Of a DNA stretch of 64,000 bases, positions 881 through 62,236 are shown piece by piece. Numbering within the stretch: position 1 is the first letter of the stretch; each line of letters begins with the position of its first letter. This DNA comes from Chloroflexota bacterium. Its GTDB lineage: Bacteria > Chloroflexota > Dehalococcoidia > SM23-28-2 > JACOUE01. Made by a program: the position numbers and the translations under genes. The notes beneath the pieces are model-generated. The model was not told the DNA's origin, ran no database searches, and was given only the letters and a program-made list of their open reading frames with translations. The stretch is taken from the NCBI GenBank assembly GCA_016178045.1, contig JACOUE010000005.1, positions 18,855 to 82,854 of the forward strand, in the 5' to 3' direction.

Positions 881-944
881 GTCATTGCGAGCGAAGTGAA
901 GCAATCTCCCGAGATCGCTTCGGGGCTACGCCCGTCGCAATGAC
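881..944. repeat. REP-like palindromic element (gtcattgcgagcgaag...cgtcgcaatgac), intergenic between the DUF35 and thiolase genes
   Basis: Inverted arms gtcattgcgagcg / cgtcgcaatgac. The core gtcattSYgagcgaagYgaagMaatctccc recurs at 43789-43818. Confidence 0.7.
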
Positions 945-947
945 GGA

Positions 948-1397
948 CTACTTGCCGTCTACCACCTTGAACTTGGCGGCGATGACGTCGTTCCCCTCCC
1001 GGTCAACCCGGATCTTCTCCGTGTACATCTTTACCTTCTTGCCGAACCACTGCGGGCTGGGGTTCAGGGGGTCGAGCCCGTACACGTTGGCGCGGACGGC
1101 AACCCCCTCCGCGAGGTCGATGATGGCGGCGACGTAAGGGGCCTCCAGGCCGGGGACAGTCTGGTGGACGACGGAGAAGACGTATATCTCGCCTTCGTCG
1201 CTCAGGCGGACCTCTTCGAAGGGGCCGGTGGACGCGCACTTGGCGCAGGCGATGCGGGAACCCAGGTAAACGGTGCCGCAGCTCTTGCACTTGGAGCCCC
1301 AGAGGTAGGCGGGCTCGTCTGGGTACTTGTCGGGGATCTTGAGGAACGGGACGAGGGGCTTGATCTTCTTCTCGGTGGCGACTTGCTCTTGGGTCAA
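948..1397 (-). CDS. DUF35 OB-fold/zinc-ribbon protein (acyl-CoA-associated partner of SCP-x thiolases)
   Basis: ORF track 149 aa with a CKSCG...CAKC zinc ribbon followed by an OB-fold. Adjacent to the thiolase-like gene on the same strand. Confidence 0.8.
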   Translation of the reverse strand: MTQEQVATEKKIKPLVPFLKIPDKYPDEPAYLWGSKCKSCGTVYLGSRIACAKCASTGPFEEVRLSDEGEIYVFSVVHQTVPGLEAPYVAAIIDLAEGVAVRANVYGLDPLNPSPQWFGKKVKMYTEKIRVDREGNDVIAAKFKVVDGK

Positions 1398-1511
1398 GGG
1401 CGGACCTCCTTCGACGGGCCTGCCTGCCGGCAGGCGGGCGAGGCACAGGTTCGTTTACGTTGACGGAAGTGTTGTATCACGGGACGGTTTTCCCCGTCAA
1501 GACGAGGCCAA

Positions 1512-1823
1512 TCACTCGACGACGTGGTGGTCCTCCCGGTCCAGGGGCGGGATCGAGAGGCTGAGGACGAGGGCAGACTCCGTCACGGCCCGGACGCTGT
1601 GGACGACTCCCTTCTCGATGCGCACCGTCTCATAGGGGAGGAGGTGGAAGGTGCGCTCGCCCACCTTGGCCTCCACCTCGTGCTCCAGCACGGTGTAGAT
1701 CTGGGTCGACTCGTTGTGGAAGTGGGGGGCCACGGATTCCGTCTGCCTCATCCCGATGATGCGGATGCTGCACTCGGGCATCTCCACGTGGGAGAGGACT
1801 TCGTAGTCGCCCATGGATCGCAT
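1512..1823 (-). CDS. cupin domain protein
   Basis: The C-terminal 104 aa of ORF 1512-2153 (MRSMGDYEVLSHVEMPECSIRIIGM...HFHNESTQIYTVLEHE) has a cupin motif. Start set at ATG 1823 with an upstream GGAG; the longer ORF prefix is low-complexity. Confidence 0.7.
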   Translation of the reverse strand: MRSMGDYEVLSHVEMPECSIRIIGMRQTESVAPHFHNESTQIYTVLEHEVEAKVGERTFHLLPYETVRIEKGVVHSVRAVTESALVLSLSIPPLDREDHHVVE

Positions 1824-1833
1824 AGGCCTGCTC

Positions 1834-2451
1834 CTATCGGAAGTAGTACGAGAGCGCCTTCTCGTAGTCGGCCGGCCGGTTGATGTCGAGGAGGACGACC
1901 GGAGTGTCGAAGTCCACCGTGCGGACGTCATCTTCGTGGCGGCGGAGGATTTCGCGCAGCCCCAGCGTTTCCTCGCGGGCCTCCCGCAGCTCCGAGAGTA
2001 GGGAGCCGGCGAGGACCGGCGGGTGTCCCCGCTTGCCCTGGTGGACAGGGATGGTGACGACTTGCCCGGCCTCCAGGTGGGAGCGGACGAGGCGGGCCAG
2101 CACCTGGTGGGGCCGGGGCTGGTCGACGTTGATGACGACGATGGCCTCGACATCGTCGTCCAGGGCGGCGGCGCCGACGCGGAGGGAGCTGGCGCGCCCC
2201 GACCGGTACAGCTCGTTGATCACGGCCTGGGCGCCGGCCTGGTGGACGTAGGGCCGGACCTCGTCCGCCTGGGCGCCGAGGACGACGACGACCTTATCGA
2301 TACCGGCGCGCTTGAGCTGGCCGATCTGGTACTCGATGAGGGTCGCGGCGCCTGCCCTGAGCCGTGTTGAAGGGCCCCATTCGAGCAGCGGCTTCGGTGT
2401 CCCCATGCGCGAGGACTCTCCGCCCGCCAGGAGCAGCGCCGCGACGGTCAT
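1834..2451 (-). CDS. mocA: molybdenum cofactor cytidylyl/guanylyl-transferase (MobA/MocA family)
   Basis: MTVAALLLAGGESSRMG...LEWGPST... is the NTP-transferase signature. Lies in an operon with xanthine-dehydrogenase-family subunits. Confidence 0.8.
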   Translation of the reverse strand: MTVAALLLAGGESSRMGTPKPLLEWGPSTRLRAGAATLIEYQIGQLKRAGIDKVVVVLGAQADEVRPYVHQAGAQAVINELYRSGRASSLRVGAAALDDDVEAIVVINVDQPRPHQVLARLVRSHLEAGQVVTIPVHQGKRGHPPVLAGSLLSELREAREETLGLREILRRHEDDVRTVDFDTPVVLLDINRPADYEKALSYYFR

Positions 2452-3296
2452 GTGACGCGAAAGAGCGACTCCAGCTTCATGGCGAGGGAGGCGTTGCCGA
2501 TGAGATGGACCTTACGGCTGACCACGGCCCAGGCGGGATTGACGTCGTGGGTGGAGAGGTCCATCCAGAGGGCCGGCCGCATGCGCATCTCCAGGTCGGC
2601 GGACTCCGTCGCCCCCGGCCGCGCTTCCGTCTTGCCATCGGCTATCTCGAGCGTCCACTGGCCGCCGCCGTCGCCGTCGAGGGTGAAGAGGTAGGAGGCG
2701 TGGAGGTCACCGCCGCGGTCGGGCCAGTAGATGAGGGGCATGAAGTGGAAAAGGCGGTCCATCTGGAAGTGAACCTCGTCGGGGGCGCTGGCGTCGATCC
2801 AGTGGGGGAGCCGCTTCACCGCCCGGCGGATGTCCTGGTAGTGGCCCGGGAGGTGCAGGTAGCACATGAAGAACAGGTCACGTACCGTGCCCGCCCGGTC
2901 CCAGCCGGGGTTGGAGGCGGGCTTGCCGAGGTCGGCTTCGGTCAGGCCGGCCAGGAGGGCGAGGTGCTCCTCGTGGGCGCGGCGGAACCGCTCGAGGAGG
3001 TCCGGCGCCGGCAGGTCACGCACGGCCGCTAGTATGCGGTCGTTGTAGTCGTCGATGGCCTCGCGTCCCCGGAAGCCGTCGAGGTGGCCCGACTCGCCGG
3101 CGAGGGCCTGGCGGGTGAGGGGTATGCCTTCCGCCTCCAGGGACGACGTGAGGTGGCCGAGGTAGTCCCTGGCCGTCCACACCTTGGTGGACTTCTTCCC
3201 CCAGTCCTTGTCGCTGATGCCGCTGAAGGCGTCCAGGCAGCGGCCGAGGGCGTGGCGGCAGTGCTTCTGGATGTCGTCTTTAGTGGGAACGGTCAC
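2448..3296 (-). CDS. DinB/mycothiol maleylpyruvate isomerase N-terminal domain family protein
   Basis: 282 aa. The N-terminal W...D..GHL helix-bundle pattern (WTARDYLGHLTSS) matches this family; exact function unclear. Confidence 0.5.
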   Translation of the reverse strand: MTVPTKDDIQKHCRHALGRCLDAFSGISDKDWGKKSTKVWTARDYLGHLTSSLEAEGIPLTRQALAGESGHLDGFRGREAIDDYNDRILAAVRDLPAPDLLERFRRAHEEHLALLAGLTEADLGKPASNPGWDRAGTVRDLFFMCYLHLPGHYQDIRRAVKRLPHWIDASAPDEVHFQMDRLFHFMPLIYWPDRGGDLHASYLFTLDGDGGGQWTLEIADGKTEARPGATESADLEMRMRPALWMDLSTHDVNPAWAVVSRKVHLIGNASLAMKLESLFRVT

Positions 3297-3321
3297 GTAT
3301 GCCTCCTATCGTAATGCCGGC

Positions 3322-5643
3322 CTATTCCTTTATCTTCCCCATCGCCCGGAGCACGCGCTCCGGGGTGATGGGGGCGTCGTAAACGCGGACGCCGGCGGCG
3401 TCCGCCACGGCGTTGGCGATGACGGCGGCGCCGGCGACGATGGACGGCTCGCCTACGATGCGGGCGCCGTACGGCCCGTCCTCCGACGGCACCTCGACGA
3501 TGATCGCCTCGATCGGCGGGAGGTCACGGGTCGTCGGCAAGCGGTAGTCGAGGAAGTTCGGGTTCAGCAGGCGGCCCTTGTCGTCGTAGACCATCTCCTC
3601 GGAGAGGGCGATGCCCAGGCCCTGGCTGGCCCCGCCCTGCATCTGTCCCTCCACCGACAGCGGGTTGATGGCGAAGCCGGCGTCCTGGGCGATGGCGTAG
3701 CGCAGGAGCGTGACCTCGCCCGTGTCCGGGTCGACCTCTACCTCCGCGATCTGGACGGTGAAGCCGGGCGCCTGCCGGCGGGCGGTGATGGTACCGGTGC
3801 CGACGACGGGGGCGTAGCGGGCGGCGAAGCCGGTGCTCATGTGGCCGATGCGCCCGAAGGTCAGGGTCTTGTCGGTCGAGCCCTTGATTCGGACGACGCC
3901 GTCCTTCATCTCGAGGTCGTCGGGGGCGGTCTCCAGCCGGTGCCCGGCGATCTCGAGGATCTGACGCCGCGCCTCGTCGGCGGCCAGCTTCACGGCCCGC
4001 CCGACGGTGAAGGTAGTCTTGGAGCCGGCGCTCATGCCGGCGTAGGGGGCGGTCTTGGTGTCGCCGGTGGTGACGTTGACCATGGACATGGGCACATTCA
4101 GCTCCTCCGCGGCGATCTGGGCGAAGGAGGTGTTGGTGCCGGTGATGTCGGCGGCGCCGACGATGACGTTGATGGTGCCGTCGCCGTTGAGGCCGACGGT
4201 GGCGCTGGCGGGCTGGAGGCCGCCCAGCCAGCCGCCCACGGCCAGGCCGACGCCGCGGGCGGGCGGGTGCCCGTCTGGGCGGTTGGGGTGCTTCCTGGAG
4301 TCGCGGCGCTCGTTCCAGACCGCCGTCTCGCTTATGGCCTGGAGGCACTCCTTCAGGCCGATGGCCGGGTAGGGCTGGCCGCTGGGCAGGGGGTCGCCCT
4401 TCTCCACGGCGTTCTTCAGCCGCACCTCCAGCGGGTCGAGGCCCAGCTTGCGGGCCATCATGTCCACGGCGCTCTCGATGGCGAAGGTGGCGTTGTGGGC
4501 GCCGGGGGCGCGCAGGGCGCCGACGCTTACCTTATTAGTAAGCACCTCGTAACCCTGGATGCCCAGGTTGGCGCACTTGTAGTAGCCGCCGATGATGAGG
4601 CAGCCGGGGAGCATGGGGGCGCCGGGGAAGGCGCCGGAGTCGTAGATGAGGCGGGCCTGGAGGGCGGTGAGGGTGCCGTCCGCCTTCATCCCCGTCTTCA
4701 GCTCGACGACGGCCTGGGGGGCGGGTGTGGCGGCGAGGATGTCTTCCTTGCGGCTCATGGTCAGCTTCACCGGCCGCCGCACCACCATGGCCAGGGCGGC
4801 GACCAGCGTCTCGTAGAGGAAGATCTTGCCGCCGAAGCCGCCGCCGACCTCGGTGGCGGTGACGCGGACCTTGGTCTCGGGGATCTCCAGTATCTCCGAC
4901 ACCTCGTCGCGGATGTAGAAGGGGGCCTGGGTGCTGGTCCAGATGGACAGCTCGCCGGTGGCGTCGTAGTCGGCGATGGTGACGTGGGGCTCGATGTACG
5001 ACTGGTGCACCATGCCCGACCACCACGTCCCCTCGACGACGGCGTCGGCCCCGGCGAAGCCCTCCTCGAGGTCGCCCCGCTTGAACGACATCTCGGAGGC
5101 GATGTTGGAAGGCTTGCCCTGCTCCTCCCTTTGCTCCACGCCCGTCGCGATGTGGCCCTTCTCCTCGGTGCGGTCCACCTCGCTCACCGGCGAACGGGCC
5201 AGCGGCGAGTCCTCGGCCATCGCGGCCACCGGGTCGACCACGGGAGGCAGTTCCTCGTACTCCACGCGGACGAGATCGCGCGCCTCCTCCGCCACGTGGG
5301 GGTCGGAGGCGAGGACGGCGGCGACGGGCTGGCCGTAGAAGAGGACCTCGTCCTCGGCCAGGAGGACTTCGCGACGGTTCGAGGGGTTCTTGCGGTGTGG
5401 CGGCAGGTCCGCGGCGGTGACCACGGCTTCCACGCCGGGGAGCCGGCGGGCCTTGGCGCTGTCGATGGACTTGATGCGGGCGTGGGCGTAGGGGGCCATG
5501 ACGAGCTTGGCGTGGAGGAGACGGGGGAGGTGCATGTCGTCGGCGTAGACGGTCTTGCCGGTGACCTTGCCCGCGGCGTCGATGCGGGTGACCGCCTTGC
5601 CGACGACCCGGTACTCCTGTCGCGTGATCGTCTCTTTGGCCAT
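3322..5643 (-). CDS. xanthine dehydrogenase family molybdopterin-binding large subunit (CoxL/aldehyde oxidoreductase-like)
   Basis: 773 aa; MAKETITRQEYRVVGKAVTRIDAAGKVTGK... is the typical N-terminus, with molybdopterin-binding domains throughout. Confidence 0.9.
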   Translation of the reverse strand: MAKETITRQEYRVVGKAVTRIDAAGKVTGKTVYADDMHLPRLLHAKLVMAPYAHARIKSIDSAKARRLPGVEAVVTAADLPPHRKNPSNRREVLLAEDEVLFYGQPVAAVLASDPHVAEEARDLVRVEYEELPPVVDPVAAMAEDSPLARSPVSEVDRTEEKGHIATGVEQREEQGKPSNIASEMSFKRGDLEEGFAGADAVVEGTWWSGMVHQSYIEPHVTIADYDATGELSIWTSTQAPFYIRDEVSEILEIPETKVRVTATEVGGGFGGKIFLYETLVAALAMVVRRPVKLTMSRKEDILAATPAPQAVVELKTGMKADGTLTALQARLIYDSGAFPGAPMLPGCLIIGGYYKCANLGIQGYEVLTNKVSVGALRAPGAHNATFAIESAVDMMARKLGLDPLEVRLKNAVEKGDPLPSGQPYPAIGLKECLQAISETAVWNERRDSRKHPNRPDGHPPARGVGLAVGGWLGGLQPASATVGLNGDGTINVIVGAADITGTNTSFAQIAAEELNVPMSMVNVTTGDTKTAPYAGMSAGSKTTFTVGRAVKLAADEARRQILEIAGHRLETAPDDLEMKDGVVRIKGSTDKTLTFGRIGHMSTGFAARYAPVVGTGTITARRQAPGFTVQIAEVEVDPDTGEVTLLRYAIAQDAGFAINPLSVEGQMQGGASQGLGIALSEEMVYDDKGRLLNPNFLDYRLPTTRDLPPIEAIIVEVPSEDGPYGARIVGEPSIVAGAAVIANAVADAAGVRVYDAPITPERVLRAMGKIKE

Positions 5644-7270: not shown

Positions 7271-8173
7271 CTACCTGCGCGCCCTCGCCACCGCCTCCTT
7301 GAGGAGGCGCTCGGTCATCACCCCCACCAGGTGGCGGCGGAAGGCAGCGGAGCCGCGGACGTCGGAGATGGGTTTGGCTTCGTCGTGGGCGATCGCGGCG
7401 GCCCCGGCGATGGCTTCGTCGGAGGCGGGCCGGCCTTCCAGGCGGGCCTCCGCGTTCCGGGCGCGCACAGGCGTCGGGGCGACGGCGCCCAGGGCGAGGC
7501 GCACGCGCTGGAAGGCACCGCCGTCAGCCTGCCCTGAGCTTGTCGAAGGGCCCAGGGTCACCAGCGCCGCCACCCCCACGACGGCGATGTCCATCTGCTT
7601 GCGGGGGGTGTGGCGCCGGTAGGCGCCGCCGGTGCGCGGCGGCGGTGGGGGGACTAGAACTTCGACGAGGAGCTCGCCGGGGCGGAGAACGGTCTCCCCG
7701 GGCCCCACGAAGAACTCGTCCAGGGGGACGGTGCGCTGTCCGGAAGGCCCGGCGATGCGCGCCGTCGCCTCGCAGGCCAGCAGCGGCGGGGCGATATCGG
7801 CGGAAGGGGCGGCGTTGCACAGGTTGCCGCCGACGGTGGCCATGTTCATAGTCTGGACGGAGCCGACGATGGACGCCCCCTCGGCGATGATGGGGTAGCG
7901 CTCGCGCACCACGGGGGACTCCGCTACTTCGGCGAAGGTGGCGCCGGCGCCGAGGCGCAGGCCGGTCGCTTCGCTGAAGTCCATTCCCTTAAGCTCGGGT
8001 AGGCGGCGGAGGCTGACGACGTACTCCGGGTAGGGAAACCGCAGGACGCCCTCCTTCATCTGCACGACGAGGTCGGTGCCGCCGGCTAGGGGCCGGCCGC
8101 CGTCGCCGCGCTGACGCAGGACGTCGATGGCTTCCTGGAGGCTGGTAGGGGCGAAGTATTCGAAGGGACGCAT
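7271..8173 (-). CDS. FAD-binding molybdopterin dehydrogenase medium subunit (CoxM-like)
   Basis: 300 aa; the GGTDL FAD-binding motif (LAGGTDLVVQMKEG) and the CO dehydrogenase flavoprotein C-terminal domain. Confidence 0.9.
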   Translation of the reverse strand: MRPFEYFAPTSLQEAIDVLRQRGDGGRPLAGGTDLVVQMKEGVLRFPYPEYVVSLRRLPELKGMDFSEATGLRLGAGATFAEVAESPVVRERYPIIAEGASIVGSVQTMNMATVGGNLCNAAPSADIAPPLLACEATARIAGPSGQRTVPLDEFFVGPGETVLRPGELLVEVLVPPPPPRTGGAYRRHTPRKQMDIAVVGVAALVTLGPSTSSGQADGGAFQRVRLALGAVAPTPVRARNAEARLEGRPASDEAIAGAAAIAHDEAKPISDVRGSAAFRRHLVGVMTERLLKEAVARARR

Positions 8174-24812: not shown

Positions 24813-24838
24813 CCCTTCGACAGGCTCAGGGCGAGCGG
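24813..24838. repeat. REP-like repeat, family B core (cccttcgacaggctcagggcgagcgg)
   Basis: One of at least seven copies of cttcgacNNNgctcagggcRRgc in the window. Confidence 0.7.
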
Positions 24839-27168: not shown

Positions 27169-28023
27169 CTAGCCCTCTCCCCCTTCGACTCCGCTCAGGG
27201 CAGGCTTCGAGGGAGAGGGGACCGGTTGTCGCTTCAGCGCCTCGTTGAGGGAGCCCTGGCGGTAGCCGGCCAGGTCGAGGGTGACATAAAGGTACCCCAG
27301 CTCCTTGAGCCGCCCGACGATGGCGCTTCGGTTCGCCAGAAGCGCCGCCATCCCCGCTTCGTCCGTCTCGATGCGGGCGACGGAGTCGTGGTGGCGGACG
27401 CGGAGCTGGCGCAGGCCCAGGGAGCGGAGGAACTCCTCCGCCCGGCCGATGCGGTCCAGCGCCTCGACGGTGACGGGCGTGCCGTAGGGGATGCGGGAGG
27501 CGAGGCAGGCCATGGCCGGCTTGTCCCAGGTGGGGAGGCCGCGCCGGCGGGAGAGGGCCCGGACGTCGTCCTTGGTGAGGCCGGCCTCCACAAGCGGGCT
27601 TCGCACGCTATGCTCGGCGGCGGCGCGGCGGCCGGGGCGGAAGTCGCCGGTGTCGTCCAGGTTGCAGCCATCCACGACGAAAGCGAAGCCGCGCTCGCGG
27701 GCGATGGCGCTGAGCCGGCCGTACAGCTCGTCCTTGCAGTGGTAACAGCGGGCGGGGTTGTTGGCCACGTACTCGGGGTTGTCCATCTCGTGCGTGTCAA
27801 TCAGCTCGTGGCGGACGCCGATCTGCCGGGCCAGGGCTTTCGCCTCCTCTACCTCGGATGGCGGCACGGAGGGGGACACGCCGGTGACGGCAAGGGCTTT
27901 GTCGTCGACGACGTCGCGGGCGACGGCGGCCACGAAGGTGCTGTCGACGCCGCCGGAGTAGGCGACGATGACCGAGCCCATCTCGGCGAGGAACGTCTTC
28001 AAGCGGGCGAGCTTCTCCTCCAT
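27169..28023 (-). CDS. larE: ATP-dependent sacrificial sulfur transferase LarE (PP-loop ATP pyrophosphatase)
   Basis: 284 aa with the PP-loop SGGVDS and conserved Cys. The C-terminal 12 aa (PALSGVEGGEG) are encoded by a REP-like element. Confidence 0.8.
   Translation of the reverse strand: MEEKLARLKTFLAEMGSVIVAYSGGVDSTFVAAVARDVVDDKALAVTGVSPSVPPSEVEEAKALARQIGVRHELIDTHEMDNPEYVANNPARCYHCKDELYGRLSAIARERGFAFVVDGCNLDDTGDFRPGRRAAAEHSVRSPLVEAGLTKDDVRALSRRRGLPTWDKPAMACLASRIPYGTPVTVEALDRIGRAEEFLRSLGLRQLRVRHHDSVARIETDEAGMAALLANRSAIVGRLKELGYLYVTLDLAGYRQGSLNEALKRQPVPSPSKPALSGVEGGEG
27173..27220. repeat. REP-like palindromic element (ccctctccc-cttcgactccgctcagggcaggcttcga-gggagaggg), inside the larE 3' end
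   Basis: A family B core nested between inverted arms ccctctccc/gggagaggg. Similar arm palindromes occur at 52769-52796 and 54981-55000. Confidence 0.7.
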
Positions 28024-43768: not shown

Positions 43769-43818
43769 TACGGCCGGGCTCGGCTGCTGTCATTCTGAGC
43801 GAAGCGAAGAATCTCCCC

Positions 43819-46898: not shown

Positions 46899-46943
46899 GG
46901 ATTGGGCGCAGATGAGCGCGGGTCATGTTGGCCATGCTCGTGG

Positions 46944-46976
46944 TTCGACCCTTCGACTTCGCTCAGGGCAGGCAGG
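46944..46976. repeat. REP-like repeat, family B (cccttcgacttcgctcagggcaggcaggc)
   Basis: Intergenic between apgM and tpiA. Confidence 0.7.
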
Positions 46977-47010
46977 CTCACCATGAGCGGGATAACCGGA
47001 GACACCTAGC

Positions 47011-51293: not shown

Positions 51294-51302
51294 TGGCGGA
51301 TG

Positions 51303-51350
51303 CTCGCCCTTCGACGCTTCGACTTCGCTCAGGGCAGGCAAGCTCAGGAC
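51303..51350. repeat. REP-like repeat, family B, tandem core (cccttcgacgcttcgacttcgctcagggcaggc)
   Basis: Lies between cyclase paralogs 1 and 2. Confidence 0.7.
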
Positions 51351-51441
51351 TAGCGGATAGAAGAAGGGACGTGATGGTCGACAACGTTGTAGCGGCGACC
51401 TTCAGGTCGCCAGGTGGAGCCGCCGACTTCAGTCGGCGGGG

Positions 51442-52800
51442 GTGGTAACAACCATGGAGCCGCAGATCCAGTACCTCAAGACCACGGACGGCGTGAGCAT
51501 TGCGTACTACGCCATGGGCCAGGGAACGCCGCTCGTTTGCATGAACTTGCCCAACTCGCACCTTCAGATGGAATGGCAGATGAGCGACACGCGGCAGACC
51601 TACGAAGCGGCGGCGCGTTTAGGCACGCTCGTCCGCTACGACCATCGCGGGTTTGGGCTGTCTGATCGCGACGTGAGCGACTTCTCGATTGAGGCCCTGC
51701 TTCGCGACTTGCAGGCGGTAGTGGACAGGCTGGAGCTGAAGAGTTTCAACCTGTTGTCGTACCGCTTCTCGTCGCCGCTGGCGATCGCTTTCGCAGCAGG
51801 GCAGCCGGACCGCGTGTTGAAGCTCGTCCTCTGGCCCGGCTACGCCCGGCTGCCCGAGACTTACACGGAAGCGATCGGGAAGATGCTCGCGCTGGACGAA
51901 TCGCAATGGGAGTTCACAACGGAGTCGCTCGTAAGGTTCGGCCAGGGCTGGTCGGACGAGATGTCCGGGGCGGCGGCTGCCACGCTTCGAGAAGCGATCA
52001 CGCCACAGACGGCCAGCGAATGGTTCCGGCAGGCAAAGGAGTGGGAGGTCTCCGACATGGTGCGCGACCTGACTATGCCGACGCTTCTCATCTGTGAAAA
52101 GGGCGACAGATACCTTGGGACAGACGTTGCCCGCGAGCTTGCCAACACAATGGCTGACGCTCGCGTCACGATTCTGGACGGCGCCTCGCGCCCGGAGAGG
52201 ATGGTGCAGGCGGTGACGGCCACAGTACCATTCCTTCTCGGCCGACAAGCCGGCCCTCAGCCGGACGCGCCTGACCTCCCCTCCGGCACCGCCGTCATCC
52301 TCTTCGCCGACATCGTCGACTCCACCGCCCTCACCGAGCGCCTGGGCGACGCCGCCTTCCGCCAGAAGGCGCGGGAGCTGGACCGTTCGCTCCGCTCCAT
52401 CATCAGCGAGCGGTCCGGCACGCCGGTCGAGGGCAAGCTGCTGGGCGACGGCGTGCTGGCCGTCTTCACGTCCGCCCGTCAGGCCATCGAGGCGGCGCTG
52501 CGCTGCGCGGCGGCGGGCAGCCACGGGGGGCTGCCCCTACACCTGGGCCTCCACGCCGGCGACGTTATCCGCGAGGAGGGCAACGTCTACGGCGGCGCCG
52601 TGAACATCGCCTCGCGCATCAGCGGCCTCTCCGCGCCGGGGGAGGTGCTGGTCTCCGACACTGTACGGGGGCTGGCCCGCACGTCGGCGGGCGTGCGGTT
52701 CGAGGACCGCGGCGAGCAGCCGCTGAAGGGTGTCTCAGAGCCGGTGCGGGTGTGGGCGGTCTCCCCCTCTCCATCGCATGGAGAGGGGGCCGGGGGGTGA
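51442..52800 (+). CDS. alpha/beta-hydrolase-fold + class III cyclase (paralog 2); C-terminal tail encoded by a palindromic element
   Basis: 452 aa; MEPQIQYLKTTDGVSIAY..., and the cyclase domain is near-identical to paralog 1. The palindrome ccccctctccatcgcatggagaggggg (52769-52796) encodes SPSPSHGEGAGG. Confidence 0.8.
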   Translation: MVTTMEPQIQYLKTTDGVSIAYYAMGQGTPLVCMNLPNSHLQMEWQMSDTRQTYEAAARLGTLVRYDHRGFGLSDRDVSDFSIEALLRDLQAVVDRLELKSFNLLSYRFSSPLAIAFAAGQPDRVLKLVLWPGYARLPETYTEAIGKMLALDESQWEFTTESLVRFGQGWSDEMSGAAAATLREAITPQTASEWFRQAKEWEVSDMVRDLTMPTLLICEKGDRYLGTDVARELANTMADARVTILDGASRPERMVQAVTATVPFLLGRQAGPQPDAPDLPSGTAVILFADIVDSTALTERLGDAAFRQKARELDRSLRSIISERSGTPVEGKLLGDGVLAVFTSARQAIEAALRCAAAGSHGGLPLHLGLHAGDVIREEGNVYGGAVNIASRISGLSAPGEVLVSDTVRGLARTSAGVRFEDRGEQPLKGVSEPVRVWAVSPSPSHGEGAGG

Positions 52801-52805
52801 GGCCG

Positions 52806-54197
52806 ATGGAGCCGCGCATCCGGTACGCGAAGACGGCGGACGGCGTTCGCATAGCCTGCTATGCGGAGGGCGAAGGCCTCCCGCTCGTGTATCTTCTCCC
52901 CTTATCTGGGCACTTACAGCTCGACTGGGACCTCTTCCGTGGCAACTATGAATCGTTTCCCAGGCGCGGTTACCGGCTGATCCGCTACGACTTCCGCGGC
53001 TCGGGGCTGTCCGATCATGCGGGCAACTACTCTGTCGAAGAGTTCACACTGGATCTGGAGGCGGTGCTGGCCCGATTCGGCGTCGAGGCCTGTGCCATAT
53101 TCGCAAATGGGCCATCCAGTCCCTTTGCAATCGTGTTTTCGGCAACCCGACCGCAGCACGTGTCCCATCTCGTGCTCCACGAGCCTTTCGCTGCGTTCGA
53201 TCAGATAGCAGGAGGGTCCCAGGTCCGAGCGTTGATGGCGCTATTGGACAGCGACTATGTGGTTTTCACCGAGACGATTGCCAGCGTCTTCTTCGGGTGG
53301 GCGGCTGGCGACGTGCCCCGCCGGTATGCTGCCCTCCTCCGCGAGTCGCAGACGCATGGTGAAGCGCGCCGGGCAGCGCAATCGATGGCCTCGCTGGACT
53401 CTCGCCCGTTCCTGAGCGACGTGCGGGCGCCTACTCTGATCTGCCACCATCGTGGCGCATCACTTGTGCCTATCGAGGTGCTACGGGATTTGTCGTCAGG
53501 CATTCCAAACGCGAGCTTAGTGGTGATGGAAGGCGAGACCGTCGCCGGCGACATCAACTCGCCGCAGATGCGGGAGGCTGTCGACGAGTTCCTCCTCGGC
53601 GCCGCTAGTGTACCTAGTGTTGTCCCGCCGCTTGCGTCTGCCACCGTGGACGCCGCCGCTACTGCTGGTGGAACGTTCCGCACGATCCTGTTCACGGATG
53701 TGGAGGGCTCGACGGCCATCACTCAGCGGCTCGGGGACGAGGGGGCGCGGGAGGTGCTGCGGGAGCACGAGCGGATTGTGCGAGAAGCGCTGAAGGCGCA
53801 CGGGGGCGCCGAGGTGAAGACGATGGGGGACGGCTTCATGGCCTCGTTCGCCTCGGCGACGAAGGCGCTGGAGTGCGCCATCGCCATTCAGAAGGCGATC
53901 CAGGAGTGGAACCAGACCGCTCGTGGTGAGCCTGTCGAACCACGAGCGGAGGAGATACGGGTGCGCATCGGCCTGAACGCCGGGGAGCCGATCGCGGAAG
54001 CGGACGATTTATTCGGCACGGCGGTGAACATGGCCGCGCGGATTGCGGCGAAGGCGGAGGGCGGCGAGATACTGGTGTCGGACGTCGTGCGGCAGCTGCT
54101 GGCGGGCAAGGGGTTCGTCTTTGCGGACCGGGGGGAGATGCCGCTGAAGGGGTTCGAGGAGCCGGTGCGGCTGTTCGAGGTGAGATGGACGACCTGA
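52806..54197 (+). CDS. alpha/beta-hydrolase-fold + class III cyclase (paralog 3, more divergent)
   Basis: Start ATG 52806 with RBS GGGGGTGAGG; MEPRIRYAKTADGVRIAC...; cyclase domain FTDVEGSTAITQRLGD, KTMGDGFMASF and GTAVNMAARI. Confidence 0.8.
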   Translation: MEPRIRYAKTADGVRIACYAEGEGLPLVYLLPLSGHLQLDWDLFRGNYESFPRRGYRLIRYDFRGSGLSDHAGNYSVEEFTLDLEAVLARFGVEACAIFANGPSSPFAIVFSATRPQHVSHLVLHEPFAAFDQIAGGSQVRALMALLDSDYVVFTETIASVFFGWAAGDVPRRYAALLRESQTHGEARRAAQSMASLDSRPFLSDVRAPTLICHHRGASLVPIEVLRDLSSGIPNASLVVMEGETVAGDINSPQMREAVDEFLLGAASVPSVVPPLASATVDAAATAGGTFRTILFTDVEGSTAITQRLGDEGAREVLREHERIVREALKAHGGAEVKTMGDGFMASFASATKALECAIAIQKAIQEWNQTARGEPVEPRAEEIRVRIGLNAGEPIAEADDLFGTAVNMAARIAAKAEGGEILVSDVVRQLLAGKGFVFADRGEMPLKGFEEPVRLFEVRWTT

Positions 54198-55009
54198 TCC
54201 GGGGGGCGATAGCGGTAGGCCGAGCGTTTGAGGCGCTGGGTAACGAGTGCTTTGAAGCGGAGGGCGCGACCTTCATCCGTAACCGCTCGCGGCCTGACCT
54301 TCGCGGCTCCAACTGCGTCACCGGCGTGACCGCCGGCACACCAAAGGAGATCGAACGCCTGCTGGCCCGCGTCGAGGCGGAGTTCGCCGCCTTTCCCCAC
54401 CGGCAGTTCGAGGTGGACTGCCTCACGCCCCCTGCCCTTGAGCCGCGGCTGGTCGTGGAGGGGTACAAGCGCGAGGGGGGCGTCGTCCTGGTGCTGGAGG
54501 CCGAACTGAACACCGAGGCCAGACCCCACGATGTCCGGCTGGTGGAGAGCGACGCGGAGTGGGGGGCGTACGGCCGCCTGCTCCGGCTCGACTGGAAGGA
54601 AGTGATGGAGCGCCTCGGCCGCCGCTACCGGGACGAAGCCGTCGACCAGGCCATCGCGAGAACGCGGGACAGGGGGCTGCCGGCGCGGCACTGGCTCGCC
54701 TACTTGGACGGCGAGGCGCGCGCCTACTGCTCGTCGTTTGTGGGGCCGGGCGGCATGGGGATGGTGGAGGACCTGTTCACCCACCCGGACTGCCGGCACT
54801 GGGGGCTGGCGACGGCCCTGGTGCACCGCTGCGTCGCCGACTGCCGGGAGCGGGGCGCCGGGCCGGTGATCATCGGCGCCGACCCCGACGATACGCCGAA
54901 GCAGATGTACGCGGCGATGGGCTTCCGCCCGCTTATGGTGATACGCTCGTACTGGAAGGAAGTCGCACCCTCACCCTCGCCCTCTCCCTGGAGGGAGAGG
55001 GAGGCATGA
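54185..55009 (+). CDS. GNAT family N-acetyltransferase (C-terminal GNAT domain)
   Basis: 274 aa with GLATALVHRCVADCRERGAG. The 3' end contains the palindrome ccctctccctggagggagaggg. Confidence 0.65.
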   Translation: MDDLIRGAIAVGRAFEALGNECFEAEGATFIRNRSRPDLRGSNCVTGVTAGTPKEIERLLARVEAEFAAFPHRQFEVDCLTPPALEPRLVVEGYKREGGVVLVLEAELNTEARPHDVRLVESDAEWGAYGRLLRLDWKEVMERLGRRYRDEAVDQAIARTRDRGLPARHWLAYLDGEARAYCSSFVGPGGMGMVEDLFTHPDCRHWGLATALVHRCVADCRERGAGPVIIGADPDDTPKQMYAAMGFRPLMVIRSYWKEVAPSPSPSPWREREA

Positions 55010-58229: not shown

Positions 58230-58957
58230 GGCGACTTTCTCGCCCACATCACCAGCGCGCCGCCCAGGGAGAGCCGCTTCGCCTCTACGTCGGGAAAGCC
58301 GGTCTCGTGCCACAGCTCGAGGAGGCGGTCCTCGGGCCAGCGGCGGTAGAAGTGGCGGATGCTGGGGCCCAGGAAACCGCCGACGCGCCCCCAGGCGGGC
58401 GAGAGGAGGGCGCCCCCCAGCGGCAGGACGACGTCGGTATGGAGGCGCCATAAGGGGTAGGCGGGGCCGCGGGGGACGGCGAAGTCCAGCGAGGCCATCG
58501 TACCGCCCGGGCGGAGGACGCGGGCCAGCTCCCGCAGGATGGCGGGCACGTCCGACACGTAGCGCAGCAGGTAGGTGAAGACGACGGCGTCGAAGGAGGC
58601 GTCGGGGAAGGGGACGGCCTCGGCCGTGCACTCGACGAAGTCGGTGGGGTATTTGCCATTGCGGGAGGCTCCCAGCCGCGCCTGCGCCAGCATCGGCCGG
58701 GTGACGTCGGCGGCGACGACGCTCACGCCCGGCCGGCCGGCCAGCCGGAGGGCGACGGCGCCGGTGCCGGTGGCCATATCGAGGACGCGATATGCGTGTG
58801 CTCGCCCTTCGACTGGCTCAGGGCGAGCGGTGGGAAGGCGCTGTAGCAGGAAGCGGTGCCAGCGGCGGTACTGGAAGAAGCTGAAGAGCTGGGCGGGCGT
58901 ATCGTAGCTAGCGGCGATGCCGGAGAAGAGGCTGCGGGCCGTTTCGCTGGGGTTCAT
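58226..58957 (-). CDS. class I SAM-dependent methyltransferase (UbiE/MenG-like) carrying an in-frame REP-like insertion
   Basis: 243 aa; the LFSGIAASYD N-terminus of the UbiE/COQ5 family and LDMATGTG motif I. Element 58801-58830 (ctcgcccttcgactggctcagggcgagcgg) is translated in frame as PTARPEPVEGRAHA, just before motif I. Confidence 0.65.
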   Translation of the reverse strand: MNPSETARSLFSGIAASYDTPAQLFSFFQYRRWHRFLLQRLPTARPEPVEGRAHAYRVLDMATGTGAVALRLAGRPGVSVVAADVTRPMLAQARLGASRNGKYPTDFVECTAEAVPFPDASFDAVVFTYLLRYVSDVPAILRELARVLRPGGTMASLDFAVPRGPAYPLWRLHTDVVLPLGGALLSPAWGRVGGFLGPSIRHFYRRWPEDRLLELWHETGFPDVEAKRLSLGGALVMWARKSP

Positions 58958-59009
58958 GACGGGGCTCAGACCGGTTGTATTATAGGCGCTCTCGCCGGGC
59001 CCGTCCGCC

Positions 59010-59020: not shown

Positions 59021-59075
59021 ATTTTACTGAACCTTTTCGAAATCGACACCTGCTTGTAGGGAGGACGGGGAGACC

Positions 59076-60269
59076 ATCGCTCGACGGCTGCACAGCACCG
59101 GGGAGCCGCAGGAGAGGGCGTACCTCGTTGCCGCCGAGCTGAAGCGGCCCGGCGACGGCTGGAACACGCAGGGCTCGCTGGACGAGCTGGCCCTGCTGGC
59201 CGACACGGCGGGGGCGGTGGTGGTGGGGCGGACGGTACAAAGACTGGACCGCCCGAACCCGGCGTTGTACGTCGGCCGGGGGAAGGTGGAGGAGGTGGTC
59301 TCCCTGCGCCCGCAGGTGGGGTACGGCGTCGTCATCTTCGATGACGAGCTGTCGCCTTCGCAGCAGCGGAACCTGGAGAACGCCCTCAAGGTGAAGGTGC
59401 TGGACCGGACGGCGCTGATTCTGGACATCTTCGCCCAGCATGCCCACACCAAGGAGGGCCGTCTCCAGGTGGAACTGGCCCAGCACGAGTACCTCCTGCC
59501 GCGGCTGCGGGGACAGTGGTCGCACCTGGAGCGGCTGGAGGGCCGAATCGGGACGCGGGGGCCGGGCGAGACGCAGCTGGAGACCGACCGGCGGCTCATC
59601 GAGCGGAAGATCCAGCAGCTGAAGCGGGAGTTGGAGCACGTCCGCAAGCAGCGGGCTCTGTACCGGCGGCGGCGGGCGCGGCAGGGGATACCGGTCGTCT
59701 CCCTGGTGGGGTACACGAACGCCGGGAAGAGCACCCTCATGCGCGCCGTCTCGGGGGCGGAGGTGCTGGTCGAGGACAAGCTATTCGCCACCCTGGACCC
59801 GCTGACGCGGCGGGTGTCGCTGCCCGGCGGCGGTACGTTCCTGCTGACGGACACGGTCGGTTTCATCCAGAAGCTGCCCACCCAGCTGGTGGCCGCCTTC
59901 CGGGCGACGCTGGAGGAGCTATCGGAGGCGGATCTGCTGCTGCACGTGGTGGACCTGACCCACCCGCAGGCTGCGGAGCAGAGCCAGACGGTGGAGGACA
60001 CGCTGGCCGAGCTGGCCCTCGGCGGGAAGCCGCGGATAACGGTGCTGAACAAGATCGACGCGCTGAGCGGGAAGGACGGCCGGCCGATCGCGGGGCTGGA
60101 GAGCCTGCGCGACTTCGAGCCGTCGCTGCGGCACTGGCGCCCGGACGCCGTGCTGGTCTCAGCGCTGAAGGGGTGGGGGGTGGCGCAGCTGCTCGAGCGC
60201 GTCGGGGCGGTGCTGGGGCAGGTGAAGGCCGAGCCAGCGGCGGGCCGGCGGGAGGCGGTCGCGGGGTAA
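59076..60269 (+). CDS. hflX: GTPase HflX
   Basis: The open frame from 59031 has no ATG, GTG or TTG before the N-domain (…IARRLHSTGEPQERAYLVAAELKRPGDGWNTQGSLDELALLADTAGAVVVG…). A strong SD lies 10 nt before the ATC at 59076. The ORF track start GTG 59217 would delete the N-domain. GTPase motifs GYTNAGKST, DTVG and NKID are present. Confidence 0.7.
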   Translation: MARRLHSTGEPQERAYLVAAELKRPGDGWNTQGSLDELALLADTAGAVVVGRTVQRLDRPNPALYVGRGKVEEVVSLRPQVGYGVVIFDDELSPSQQRNLENALKVKVLDRTALILDIFAQHAHTKEGRLQVELAQHEYLLPRLRGQWSHLERLEGRIGTRGPGETQLETDRRLIERKIQQLKRELEHVRKQRALYRRRRARQGIPVVSLVGYTNAGKSTLMRAVSGAEVLVEDKLFATLDPLTRRVSLPGGGTFLLTDTVGFIQKLPTQLVAAFRATLEELSEADLLLHVVDLTHPQAAEQSQTVEDTLAELALGGKPRITVLNKIDALSGKDGRPIAGLESLRDFEPSLRHWRPDAVLVSALKGWGVAQLLERVGAVLGQVKAEPAAGRREAVAG

Positions 60270-60306
60270 GGGCGGCCATGTTCGGAACGGATGCCTGAGA
60301 ACGCGG

Positions 60307-60948
60307 ATGGCGACAGGAAGCGAGCCCGCTGATGGCGATGCGGTTCAGGCTTTCGTACACAGCGCTCATCTCGCGCTAGACCCTTTCGCCGACGTTTACC
60401 GCGCCTCTGCAGAGCATCGCGAGGGCCACAGGTGCGATGTGTACTGCACAGGCAGCGGGCGTCTTCTGGGCCTACTGGCTCAATCCTTGGGAGTCCGACG
60501 GGCTCTGGAGGTGGGGTGCGGGCTGGGTTACAGTGCCCTTTGGCTGGCGTGGGGCTCCGCCCCTGAAGGTCGGATCGAGACCGTGGAAGCGGACCCAGAG
60601 CACGCCCGGCTCGCCGAAGGCCATTTCCGCGCGCACCGTCTCGTCGAACGGATCCATATCCACGTCGGGCGGGCCCTGGACATCCTGCCCGACCTGGTCC
60701 CTCCCTTCGACCTGATCTTCCTTGACGCCGACTGGAGTGAATACTCCGCCTACCTCGATGAATGCTTGCGATTACTGCGGCCTGGAGGTCTGTTGGTCAG
60801 CTCTAACTTGTGGCCGGCCACCTATGCGCCAGGCTTGGGAGGGCTGGCGGAAGTGGCTGACTACCGTCGGCGGTTGCTGGAGCAGCCCCGTCTGCTCAGT
60901 GTCTTGATCCCACGTGGCCCGGGTTTGAGCTTGATGGTCGCCGATTGA
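60307..60948 (+). CDS. class I SAM-dependent O-methyltransferase (caffeoyl-CoA OMT / YrrM-like)
   Basis: 213 aa with LEVGCGLGYSALW and IFLDADW motifs. Confidence 0.75.
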   Translation: MATGSEPADGDAVQAFVHSAHLALDPFADVYRASAEHREGHRCDVYCTGSGRLLGLLAQSLGVRRALEVGCGLGYSALWLAWGSAPEGRIETVEADPEHARLAEGHFRAHRLVERIHIHVGRALDILPDLVPPFDLIFLDADWSEYSAYLDECLRLLRPGGLLVSSNLWPATYAPGLGGLAEVADYRRRLLEQPRLLSVLIPRGPGLSLMVAD

Positions 60949-60999
60949 CGCAATAGTCCCTGCCGAACGACCTACGACGAGGCCTCCGTTTAGGCGGGG

Positions 61000-61013
61000 C
61001 AGGCTTAAGCCTG
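61000..61013 (+). promoter_or_regulatory. perfect 14-bp palindrome caggcttaagcctg upstream of the arsR promoter (candidate operator)
   Basis: Lies 33 nt upstream of the -35 element. Confidence 0.3.
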
Positions 61014-61045
61014 TCCTACGGGGGTATTTTTCCCGGGGTTAGGTA

Positions 61046-61075
61046 TTGACACTCTTCAATTTAATACCGTACGAT
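61046..61075 (+). promoter_or_regulatory. sigma70-like promoter TTGACA-18-TACGAT for arsR
   Basis: TTGACA at 61046-61051 and TACGAT at 61070-61075. The ATG 61085 is 9 nt downstream, so the transcript is leaderless. The ORF track's TTG start at 61046 is the -35 hexamer itself. Confidence 0.5.
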
Positions 61076-61084
61076 GTGCCTGTC

Positions 61085-61426
61085 ATGAGGACTGCTACGC
61101 TGGGTTGCTGCGAGGTGACGCCGGAGGAGCGCGTCGCCGTCGCTGAGGCGAAAGACGAGGCGGGGCGCCTGGCCGACCTCTTCAAGGCGCTGTCGGACGG
61201 GACCCGGGTGCGCATCGTGCAGCGGCTGCTCCAGTCTCGGCAGCCGATCTGCGAGTGCCACCTGGTGGAGCTGTTCGACCTCTCCCAGCCGACGATCAAC
61301 TACCACCTGAAGGTGCTGCGGGAGGCCGGCATCGTGGAGTCGGACAAGCGGGGGGTGTGGAGCTATTACTGGGTCAGCCCCCGGGCGATGCTGGAGCTGG
61401 TGAGGTCGCTGACGGAGCTGGGCTAA
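61085..61426 (+). CDS. arsR: ArsR/SmtB family metalloregulator
   Basis: MRTATLGCCEV... and LQSRQPICECHLVELFDLSQPTINYHLKVL, the HTH with a Cys-rich metal site. Confidence 0.8.
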   Translation: MRTATLGCCEVTPEERVAVAEAKDEAGRLADLFKALSDGTRVRIVQRLLQSRQPICECHLVELFDLSQPTINYHLKVLREAGIVESDKRGVWSYYWVSPRAMLELVRSLTELG

Positions 61427-61461
61427 TTTTTTCGGCCGTAAGAAATCGAAAAGATTCTATG

Positions 61462-62236
61462 GAACCCCAAAGGAGGTCAGCCGTGGAGAACGAGCAGGCG
61501 ATCAAAGAGGCGGTGCGGCAGCGCTACGCGGAAAGGGCCCGCCGCGGCGCCGAGGACGTCCGCAGCTGCTGCGAGCAGCAGGACGACCTCGGCGCCATAA
61601 GCTGCAACCTGTACGAAGACGAGGGGCGGTATCGACGTTATCCTCTCGGCGCGGAAGGTGGGCCCGGCGGGGAAGGCGTACGGCCTGGACATGACGGACG
61701 AGATGCTGGACCTGGCCCGTCGCAACGCCCGTGAGGCGGGCGTCGCCAACGCCGAGTTCCTCAAGGGCGAGATGGAGGCGATGCCCCTGCCGGACGGTTC
61801 CGCGGACGTGATGATCAGCAACTGCGTCGTGAACCTGTCGCCGGACAAGGACGCCGTGTTCCGCGAGGCGTACCGCGTGCTGAGGCCGGGCGGCCGCATC
61901 GCCATCGCCGACATCGTGGTGCGGGGGCAGATGCCGCGGCTGCTACAGCGGAGCCTGGAGCTTTGGGCCGGTTGCCTGGCGGGCGCGCTCCAGGAGGACG
62001 AATACCGGTCGAAGCTGGCGGCAGCGGGCTTCGGCGAGATCGATATCGAGGTCACGCGGGAGTATACCGCGTCCGACGCGGAGGGAGCGGGGCTCGGCGG
62101 CCTGCTCCAGCGCTACGGAAAGAGGGGCGAGGAGACACTGGGCTTCGTCAGCGCCATGGTGAGGGCGAGGAAGCCTGTCCTGAGCCGAAGCCCTGAGCGA
62201 AGCGAAGGGGCAGTCGAAGGGCCGGTCAACGGATAG
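61462..62236 (+). pseudogene. arsM: arsenite S-adenosylmethyltransferase with internal about 100-bp deletion/frameshift and REP-like insertion at the 3' end
   Basis: Frame A reads MEPQRRSAVENEQAIKEAVRQRYAERA...SCCEQQDDLGAISCNLYEDEG, the ArsM N-terminal Cys pair. Frame C resumes GGIDVILSARKVGPAGKAYGLDMTDEMLDLARRNA...VMISNCVVNLSPDK... About 35-40 aa including LDLGSGG are missing. The C-terminal KPVLSRSPERSEGAVEGPV is encoded by REP element 62178-62222, in reverse orientation. Confidence 0.65.

Follow-up and report, generated by a model that had tools for sequence, protein, structure and literature searches.

A probable mobile 24-nucleotide hairpin module in intergenic DNA, in hairpin loops and in frame in genes of a Chloroflexota bacterium

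Among the described systems closest to the repeats treated here, Rickettsia palindromic elements (RPEs) are about 100-150 bp long and confined to Rickettsia, miniature inverted-repeat transposable elements (MITEs) have target-site duplications and a recognisable parent insertion sequence (IS), and the origin or nick-site hairpins of HUH endonucleases (rolling-circle Rep proteins, relaxases and the TnpA of IS200/IS605) consist of a variable stem closing a conserved loop. MITEs measure 70-300 bp with terminal inverted repeats of 15-30 bp, and repetitive extragenic palindromic sequences (REPs) are defined by a GTAG or CGTC end tetranucleotide; numerous REP families are limited to one species or genus, some are common to distant taxa, and intragenic copies have occasionally been reported (Di Nocera et al., 2013; PMC3733652). 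The present work concerns a family of short hairpin repeats in a 64,000-nucleotide stretch of DNA (hereafter the window) from a Chloroflexota bacterium of the class Dehalococcoidia (GenBank assembly GCA_016178045.1, contig JACOUE010000005.1, positions 18,855 to 82,854 of the forward strand). The repeat units are probably a very small non-autonomous mobile hairpin module of the REP, RPE and MITE kind that is tolerated in frame in genes, a reading that we favour with reservations.

The G+C content of the window is 65-71% over most of its length (61% in one 2-kb bin), and coding frames are readily recognised in it because their third-position G+C (GC3) is about 0.85-0.95; by homologue search, the nearest relatives of its CoxM-like and methyltransferase proteins are Dehalococcoidia/Chloroflexota metagenome-assembled genomes. 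At least nine family-B units, two family-A loci and three C-type CCCTCTCC/GGAGAGGG hairpins are present (Table 1). Compared with 100 dinucleotide-preserving shuffles of the window, the loose B core TTC[GA]AC-N2-5-CTCA was observed 8 times (0.61 expected), the A core TTC[GA]CTTCGCTC 3 times (0.02 expected; the matches lie at the two A loci and in the inner module 62189-62212) and C-type hairpins of the form CCCTCTCC...GGAGAGGG 3 times (0 expected). The looser core search placed the B units at 2357(-), 7534(-), 24816(+), 27184(+), 46952(+), 51318(+), 53926(-), 58808(+) and 62195(-), and the A units at 889(-) and 43797(-). A first-pass annotation of the window had already described a multi-copy repeat family, and each copy that it listed is present, displaced by a few bases at most; its strict B pattern gives 4 matches where 0.11 are expected, and its family-A pattern matches at 881-910. 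Three intragenic copies had been overlooked, at 2350-2373(-), 7527-7550(-) and 53919-53947(-), and of the two A sites that it named, 881-944 is the palindrome described and 43789-43816 is a single A unit without a full palindrome. Four units of the window are internal to genes (CoxM-like, MobA-like, UbiE-like methyltransferase and cyclase 3, each with one 24-nt module), four open reading frames (ORFs) end by running into repeats (LarE, cyclase 2, GNAT and a disrupted ArsM-like ORF) and six units are intergenic.

The conserved part of the unit is a loop of 13-14 nt, TTCGAC-N3-4-CTCA (complement TGAG-N3-4-GTCGAA), with the A variant TTCRCTTCGCTC. The sequences of the stem differ freely, as in GCTCGCCC/GGGCGAGC (58800), GCTCGTGG/CCACGAGC (53919), ATTGC/GCAAT (889) and ATTC/GAAT (43797), and family A has the same loop on an A/T-rich stem; with one loop and freely varying stems, families A and B form one superfamily. 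A core common to both had been proposed in the first-pass annotation, and the inner module 62189-62212, in which an A-type loop TTCGCTTCGCTCA sits in a B-type G/C stem, bears this out. The 24-nt module is made up of 2-3 nt of the 5' stem arm, the loop, 3 nt of the 3' arm and a tail of a few bases (CAGGC or CGAGC); of the six frames in which the unit can be read, five are free of stops. When copies were folded and compared with shuffled sequences, the units at 53919-53947 and 58800-58828, the 64-nt A palindrome and the three C-type hairpins gave z scores of -2 to -4, so that the earlier description of the repeats as palindromic holds for about half of the window copies and not for the rest. A covariance model recovered the four copies with 13-nt loops strongly and penalised those with 14-nt loops; the search with it gave no convincing additional copies.

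Units are also found inside one another. Two copies previously taken for tandem cores (46936-46988 and 51302-51354) are really nested, the outer unit being a 29-nt hairpin that is split directly after TTCGAC by a 24-nt module, and the compound element at 62178 is built likewise. The module stands directly after TTCGAC in six independent composites, namely these three and those in loci fetched from other genomes, L059 (Agromyces), L118 and L125/L126, and the C-type hairpin at 27173-27219 has one more such module in its loop. The fixed entry point in the loop and the fixed length are the strongest mechanistic clues in the data.

With REPs and REPINs these units have in common that they are short (20-40 nt) G/C-rich repeats in many dispersed copies, often single or in inverted pairs, with a preference for the site just downstream of genes; like REPs they would form stem-loops, on the strength of covarying stems in 128 units, though about half of the window copies fold no better than shuffled sequences; the 24-nt modules and 29-nt hairpins fall within the REP length range, and at least 11 A/B units occur in 64 kb where fewer than one is expected. 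They differ in that the conserved part is the 13-14 nt loop and not the stem, and in that this loop is the same across phyla. The likeness is further qualified by the absence of a GTAG or CGTC tag from the window copies and from the consensus of 128 units aligned from many phyla, by the fact that among the families listed for 124 ORFs flanking units no REP-associated tyrosine transposase (RAYT) or other transposase was found, and by the location of more than half of the window copies inside ORFs, REPs being mostly extragenic. With RPEs they share palindromic repeats lying in frame in genes that stay open, at permissive sites, and also in non-coding DNA (on RPEs, see also PMC3733652); this is seen here in the CoxM-like, MobA-like, methyltransferase and cyclase 3 genes. 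Compared by description only, RPEs are 4-6 times longer than the 24-nt module, which occurs in many phyla. The MITEs Correia/NEMIS, ERIC, RUP and Nezha are likewise non-autonomous, multi-copy and hairpin-forming, are found in operons and sometimes in reading frames, and are polymorphic for presence or absence between strains; neither the size of a MITE nor its terminal inverted repeats, target-site duplication or parent IS was found for the modules. The likeness to HUH substrates is a lead: the nested modules all start at one loop position after TTCGAC, as a loop-nicking enzyme would give, whereas insertions in genes are not preceded by TTCGAC and no HUH gene was linked to the units in the data covered.

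In-frame copies inside genes, as in RPEs, had been claimed from the sequence of the window, and comparison with orthologues upholds the claim, since most orthologues lack the segment and the carriers keep the nucleotide signature of the repeat. The case of the CoxM-like protein is the fullest. Its segment PSTSSGQA corresponds to a 9-residue gap in three CoxM/CutM chains of the PDB and is missing in 107 of the 120 closest homologues; the other 13 carry (G/D/S)PS(T/A)(G/S)SGQ at the identical site, which is predicted to be a turn between strands 199-207 and 220-229 (AlphaFold2, mean predicted local distance difference test score 88). The peptide might have been encoded in orthologues by DNA without any likeness to the repeat; in all six insert-bearing orthologues fetched (L001-L004, L125 and L128) the insert DNA is repeat-like, being cccTTCGACAGGCTCAggg or a near variant. 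Genes that are 70-82% identical among the window, L001, L002 and L003 agree at 92-100% over the 24 nt, and in a genome with a GC3 of about 0.9 the insert retains CCT, ACA and TCA, codons that end in A or T. As the two orientations of the unit encode unrelated peptides (PSTSSGQA and ARPEPVEG), these observations together indicate that the shared feature is the nucleotide sequence and not the protein.

The other three gene-internal copies were compared in the same manner. In the MobA-like gene the insert amounts to exactly 8 codons after TGG, the site being filled in the window and L002 and empty (TGG^GGC) in L001 and L003, and the segment falls in an 8-residue gap against PDB 2waw. About 100 homologues of the methyltransferase have a short loop LSRLQLSPPARVLD (LSPPARVLD) where the window protein has LQRLPTARPEPVEGRAHAYRVLD, and here several unrelated lineages have repeat-derived inserts of other kinds: the peptide ARPEPIQG, the inverted dimer HPEPVEGRA...PSASSGRS, an insert of several units and two more repeat-like peptides. 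Cyclase 3 has about 7 extra residues (ARGEPVEP) relative to PDB Ma1120 and to its two neighbouring paralogues; like the methyltransferase insert, this one conforms to the 24-nt module. Predicted junction peptides across the inserts include LVTLGPSTSSGQADGG and LPTARPEPVEGRAHAYR. As a separate observation, the methyltransferase loop of homologues P0126, P0187, P0222 and P0231 and of P0142, P0205, P0213 and P0219 contains 'TSNLQSPSS'- and 'ARPDGRPSG'-type inserts, which to judge from their sequence look like products of further repeat families, and the loop would then be a recurrent insertion site.

At gene ends, C-terminal tails translated from repeats had been proposed for four proteins, and all four ORFs do end in repeats. 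LarE homologues stop 0-10 residues past query position ~265, about 15 residues short of the end of the window protein, and the window ORF goes on for 18 residues through the nested C/B element; cyclase 2 ends within a C-type hairpin, and its paralogues cyclases 1 and 3 end without one; the GNAT domain ends near residue 250 of 274 and the ORF end lies within a C-type hairpin. The tail of the ArsM-like ORF is doubtful. This ORF begins at position 25 of Pfam Methyltransf_31 ('GGIDVILSA...') and lacks motif I, probably through a deletion or frameshift, that is, as a pseudogene or a sequence error, and being seemingly disrupted upstream it was not counted as evidence of translation. The corresponding gene, 61255-62236, is split over two frames, its N-terminal part ending near '...LYEDEGRYRR'. 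The three cyclases themselves are tandem paralogues (49944-54197), fusions of an alpha/beta-hydrolase with a class III nucleotide cyclase; a stretch of 300 nt is 90% identical between cyclases 1 and 2, and repeat elements lie at or between the gene ends of the trio and inside the third copy.

Presence of the units changes between strains and lineages. In a neighbour-joining tree of the 120 CoxM homologues, computed after removal of the insert columns, insert-bearing sequences occur in at least six separate places, an apparently polyphyletic distribution. One tight cluster includes both states: the CoxM genes of L125 and L126 are 98.2% identical and differ by a 24-nt indel, the insert being present in L125 only, and a composite of several units, about 203 nt long, is present in L125 and L126 and absent from L127 and L128. 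At the site of the 881-944 palindrome, the operon spacer is only 30-37 nt long in the syntenic loci L001 and L002, and the element is absent. In L125 (2598-2812, and likewise in L126) the insertion of about 203 nt lies between CoxM and CoxS and includes a diverged duplicate of the last ~20 CoxM codons; the C-terminus of CoxM is therefore intact though different, and the old one is left as a remnant.

The unit was also sought outside Chloroflexota by scanning one genome per GTDB species (596 Gb) with the pattern CCTTCGAC-N2-3-GCTCAGG, which returned at least 120 loci. The matches listed span Bacteroidota (33-45% GC), groups of the Candidate Phyla Radiation (CPR), Cyanobacteria, Chloroflexota, Actinomycetota (including isolates of Microbacterium, Agromyces and Streptomyces), Proteobacteria, Acidobacteriota, Planctomycetota, Nitrospirota and others. 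Among them are the Dehalococcoidia chromosomes OZ242018.1 and OZ242024.1 and the Chitinophagaceae chromosome OY970254.1, and culturable carriers include Agromyces, Microbacterium mangrovi and Sphingomonas gilva. Some 2,000 chance matches to this 15-nt pattern are expected in 596 Gb, so that single matches alone prove nothing; the evidence comes from what the search did not impose. Of 138 units that match the pattern, 110 have a Watson-Crick third stem pair (25% by chance), and the fetched loci hold 59 further units unconstrained by the search pattern against 0.84 expected, 42 of them with perfect stems of at least 3 bp. In the alignment of 128 units the loop is invariant and the stem pairs covary (pair 10-28: CG 46, UA 38, GC 19; pair 11-27: CG 96, GC 28), with a covariation score of 0.391 against 0.163 in shuffles, none of 500 reaching it, and at most 0.176 with slid partners. 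Inverted pairs of units, 35-60 nt apart, are frequent; the two arms of a pair have different stem triplets, and a local hairpin is thus retained in each. Viral contigs of IMG/VR contain 39 unconstrained units where 1.1 are expected.

Solitary units of this wider set lie inside crude ORF calls in 92 of 228 cases, in the orientation stop-free in all frames rather than the other by 62 to 30 (close to the ratio of 3:2 expected from stop content), and they lie downstream of genes more often than upstream (74 vs 25). Compared with Mycobacterium tuberculosis Zmp1 (PDB 3zuk), an M13 peptidase (Zmp1/PepO family) of the isolate Agromyces sp. NPDC058484 (L059 4418-6517) is longer by two inserts derived from the repeat and read in frame, of about 22 and 17 residues; intragenic colonisation is therefore not confined to Chloroflexota. 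The strings VRPELVEG, PFDKLRA and LRQAQD are frequent in hypothetical proteins from metagenomes, and the cross-phylum DNA units encode strings of this kind. ORFs between distant unit clusters are present in L015, L023, L053, L059 and L081. In L015 (Microbacterium mangrovi MUSC 115), arrays of up to five units at 4337-4677 and 6453-6608, with a period of 54 nt and a spacing of ~72 nt in the second cluster, lie on both sides of a 541-aa ORF that by eye resembles actinobacterial HNH/DUF222 ('13E12-like') proteins.

The genes that neighbour the units are ordinary housekeeping genes: the 124 ORFs adjoining units in 120 genome loci fall in 175 Pfam families, none with more than three members. Neither the window nor 18 loci from other phyla matched an Rfam family at the gathering threshold, and at lax thresholds there were chance-level matches only (a 20-kb part of the window at E <=5, the canonical dimer at E <=10). 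Other identities were considered and dropped. None of 10 terminator-like sites in 43000-62900 coincides with a copy, and the tails of the units are G/C-rich without a T-run, which speaks against intrinsic terminators; no tRNA or tmRNA gene was found in the window, so that an origin from these was set aside; and by inspection the conserved positions do not fit a hammerhead-like core, T-arm mimicry, a LexA box or parS/dif sites. Open-access papers searched by nucleotide cores, peptides and topics contain no description of this family and yielded general REP papers only (PMC3733652; PMC12306157); as the search covered open-access literature, a prior description elsewhere is possible.

Table 1. 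Repeat units, composites and associated reading frames of the window. CM E, E value of the match to the covariance model; z, folding energy relative to shuffled sequences; ^, point at which a unit is split.
Feature	Position	Strand	Details
Family A compound palindrome	881..944	-	Outer arms GTCATTGCGA/TCGCAATGAC; dG -35 kcal/mol, z -3.2; intergenic, between OB-fold gene (948-1397, -) and next gene (start near 845)
A unit within the palindrome	889-900	-	Stem ATTGC/GCAAT, loop TTCACTTCGCTC
24-nt module CCTTCAACACGGCTCAGGGCAGGC	2350..2373	-	In frame in MobA-like NTP transferase gene (1834-2451, -); about PSTRLRAG
24-nt module CCCTTCGACAAGCTCAGGGCAGGC	7527..7550	-	In frame in CoxM-like FAD subunit gene (7271-8173, -); PSTSSGQA; CM E 7.6e-8
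B unit CCCTTCGACAGGCTCAGGGCGAGC	24813..24836	+	Intergenic, upstream of DUF309 gene (24346-24768, -); CM E 2.6e-8
C-type hairpin CCCTCTCCC/GGGAGAGGG	27173..27219	+	z -2.1/-2.6; B module nested in loop
24-nt B module CCTTCGACTCCGCTCAGGGCAGGC	27182-27205		In loop of C-type hairpin 27173-27219, next to TTCGA
LarE ORF	27169-28023	-	Last ~15 codons are the 27173-27219 element; tail ...PSPSKPALSGVEGGEG, then stop
Single family A unit GGAGATTC-TTCGCTTCGCTCA-GAATGAC	43789..43816	-	Stem ATTC/GAAT; intergenic, after gene ending 43736
Nested composite, 53 nt	46936..46988	+	Outer GCTCGTGG-TTCGAC^AGGCTCA-CCATGAGC; inner 24-nt module 46950-46973; intergenic
Nested composite, 53 nt	51302..51354	+	Outer GCTCGCCC-TTCGAC^AAGCTCA-GGACTAGC; inner 24-nt module 51316-51339; between cyclases 1 and 2
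C-type hairpin CCCCCTCTCCAT-CGC-ATGGAGAGGGGG	52763..52789	+	Cyclase 2 C-terminal tail SPSPSHGEGAGG, stop 52798-52800; z -3.6/-4.2
B unit, 8-bp stem, GCTCGTGG-TTCGACAGGCTCA-CCACGAGC	53919..53947	-	z about -3; best CM match, E 7e-9
24-nt part of the 53919-53947 unit	53919-53942		In frame in cyclase 3 catalytic domain; ARGEPVEP
C-type hairpin CCCTCTCCCT-GG-AGGGAGAGGG	54980..55001	+	Tail of GNAT ORF (54185-55009), ...SPSPSPWREREA, then stop
B unit, 8-bp stem, GCTCGCCC-TTCGACTGGCTCA-GGGCGAGC	58800..58828	+	CM E 1e-8
24-nt part of the 58800-58828 unit	58805-58828		In frame in UbiE-like methyltransferase (58226-58957, -); ARPEPVEG just before motif I
Nested composite	62173..62221	-	Outer CCC-TTCGAC^TCGGCTCA-GGACAGGC, split directly after TTCGAC
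Inner 24-nt module TGCCCCTTCGCTTCGCTCAGGGCT	62189-62212	-	A-type loop; within last codons of ArsM-like ORF (61658-62236, +)

A few further features of the window lie apart from the units. In the guaA (GMP synthase) ORF at 39095-40561 (-) the 'DPEEKR...FIRVFEEEA' region recurs on the opposite strand as an inverted copy of 123 nt (78% complementary), with arms at 39667-39789 and 39846-39968 and a local G+C of 0.61; the ORF apparently lacks the end of the glutaminase domain and the SGGVDS P-loop and is either a rearranged pseudogene or a fold-back assembly artefact. Tandem arrays of 7 nt (AGAACCT/GAGAACC, ~4 copies each) at 37930-37959 and 43728-43755, the latter at the stop codon of the gene ending 43736 and adjoining the family-A unit, appear to form a small repeat family of their own. 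Two neighbouring minus-strand ORFs contain a direct repeat of 91 nt (86% identical; 37125-37215 and 37812-37902), which may represent paralogous gene starts.

In the explanation that we consider most probable, the unit would be a short, freely varying G/C-rich stem closing the conserved 13-14 nt loop, and the moving piece in this lineage would be the discrete 24-nt module, spreading within genomes into intergenic DNA, into the exposed loops of hairpin repeats directly after TTCGAC and into coding DNA. Because 24 nt equal 8 codons and five of six frames are stop-free, an insertion leaves the protein intact with eight extra residues or a new tail, and such alleles therefore survive when the insertion falls in a surface loop or at a gene end; these places may be reached by landing there or by selective filtering. 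Movement would proceed through a single-stranded hairpin intermediate and a hairpin-recognising enzyme encoded elsewhere, for example one of the HUH/Y1 type such as RAYT, by analogy with HUH/Y1 substrates, which the loop-targeted nesting and the variable stem with a conserved loop resemble. The inserts are presumably translated, and most copies would be neutral passengers.

Several observations weigh against this explanation. Many window copies have stems of 3-5 bp only and fold no better than shuffled sequences, with z near 0. A mobilising enzyme was not found: there is no Y1 or RAYT family among the 25 Pfam families listed for the flanking ORFs, and the sole mobility-type match among them is Phage_integrase, with two members. 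Neither a target-site duplication nor terminal inverted repeats could be defined for the modules; the GGC flanking the MobA insert is an ambiguous candidate duplication and is not seen at other sites. Window units are unbiased relative to the GC-skew strand, where a strand-specific single-stranded DNA transposon might show bias, and of the single cross-phylum matches about 15-20% may be chance. That bacteria ranging from Bacteroidota at 33% GC to Actinomycetota at 72% GC should have one and the same loop is not easily accounted for by a selfish element alone and could point to a conserved host factor.

Such a factor is the basis of the alternative that survives best, which we regard as unlikely: the units would be a host-functional motif, bound or processed by a conserved factor (for instance in stabilising the 3' ends of mRNA, in the entry of an RNase or helicase, or as a nucleoid or topoisomerase site, in line with proposals for Escherichia coli REPs) and kept by selection, and the intragenic copies would be by-products. 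The first-pass annotation had likewise suggested mRNA-stabilising hairpins, or else recombination hot spots, as possible roles. The identical 13-nt loop with covarying stems in phyla of very different GC would suit it, as would the REP-like excess of solitary units downstream of genes and the lack of a transposase among the families listed for the 124 flanking ORFs. So would the asymmetry of stem mismatches on the TTCGAC strand (A.C-type 14 vs G.T-type 5; CCC/GGA 17 vs TCC/GGG 3), which makes wobble pairs possible on the complementary strand; it hints at a preferred strand and possibly at a strand-specific RNA function, or it may reflect propagated subfamilies only. With respect to flanking genes the units favour neither orientation (37:37 in 3' flanks, 13:12 in 5' flanks), which counts against this alternative as well as against the mobile module. 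A regulatory role is also implausible for copies in enzyme cores and in each other's loops, presence differs among 98%-identical strains, many copies barely fold, and there is neither coincidence with a T-run terminator nor an Rfam family.

Quite unlikely, in our estimate, is spread without a dedicated transposase, by homologous recombination or gene conversion among alleles and among copies, together with polymerase template switching at hairpins, in which case the shared CoxM and MobA inserts would each be one old event moved by allele exchange. The indel between L125 and L126 is in fact not clean, additional substitutions being clustered at both junctions, so that allele replacement by recombination is possible there as well as transposition, a further point against the mobile module. 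The ~203-nt composite of these two loci, with its diverged duplicate of the CoxM 3' end, is a signature of illegitimate or allelic recombination, a neighbour-joining tree of 290 residues is compatible with recombination as the cause of apparent polyphyly, and no association with a transposase was found. Recombination leaves unexplained, however, the constant 24-nt module after TTCGAC in unrelated composites of at least three phyla, the different repeat inserts at one methyltransferase loop and the colonisation of new loci. A Pro/Ser/Gly-rich linker motif converging at the protein level in a GC-rich genome, with no inserted DNA, would agree with low-complexity peptides located in loops and is effectively excluded, since one nucleotide string is found between genes as well as in them, and in both orientations with unrelated peptides, its codon choice is atypical for the genome and conserved at synonymous sites, most orthologues lack the segment and no orthologue was seen with the peptide from unrelated codons.

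To the mobile module, as we favour it, a broader proposal can be added, which we put forward tentatively as a possibility: the units may be a pan-bacterial class of ultra-small mobile elements, not described before, in which a 24-nt hairpin, served by one recognising enzyme or host factor, integrates at a fixed position of hairpin loops and in genes and acts as a general generator of 8-residue insertions. Bacteria with this loop range from Bacteroidota and the CPR to Actinomycetota and Chloroflexota, and phage contigs have it too. Palindromic inserts in frame (RPEs) and, occasionally, REPs within genes are already known (PMC3733652); the 24-nt module, the cross-phylum loop, the loop-specific nesting and the recurrent in-frame inserts in conserved enzymes of Chloroflexota and Actinomycetota were not matched in Rfam or in the searchable open-access literature.

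If the proposed explanation is true, in-frame colonisation by palindromic repeats would be no oddity of Rickettsia: bacteria in general would gain protein indels from it, through a single element family to which annotation pipelines pay no attention. It would also account for the recurrent PSTSSGQA- and ARPEPVEG-type peptides and provide a ready marker of strain-level insertion polymorphism. The question that it raises is which enzyme or host factor reads a 13-nt loop common to many bacterial phyla, and for this the fixed size of 24 nt and the loop-targeted nesting are testable clues to the mechanism.

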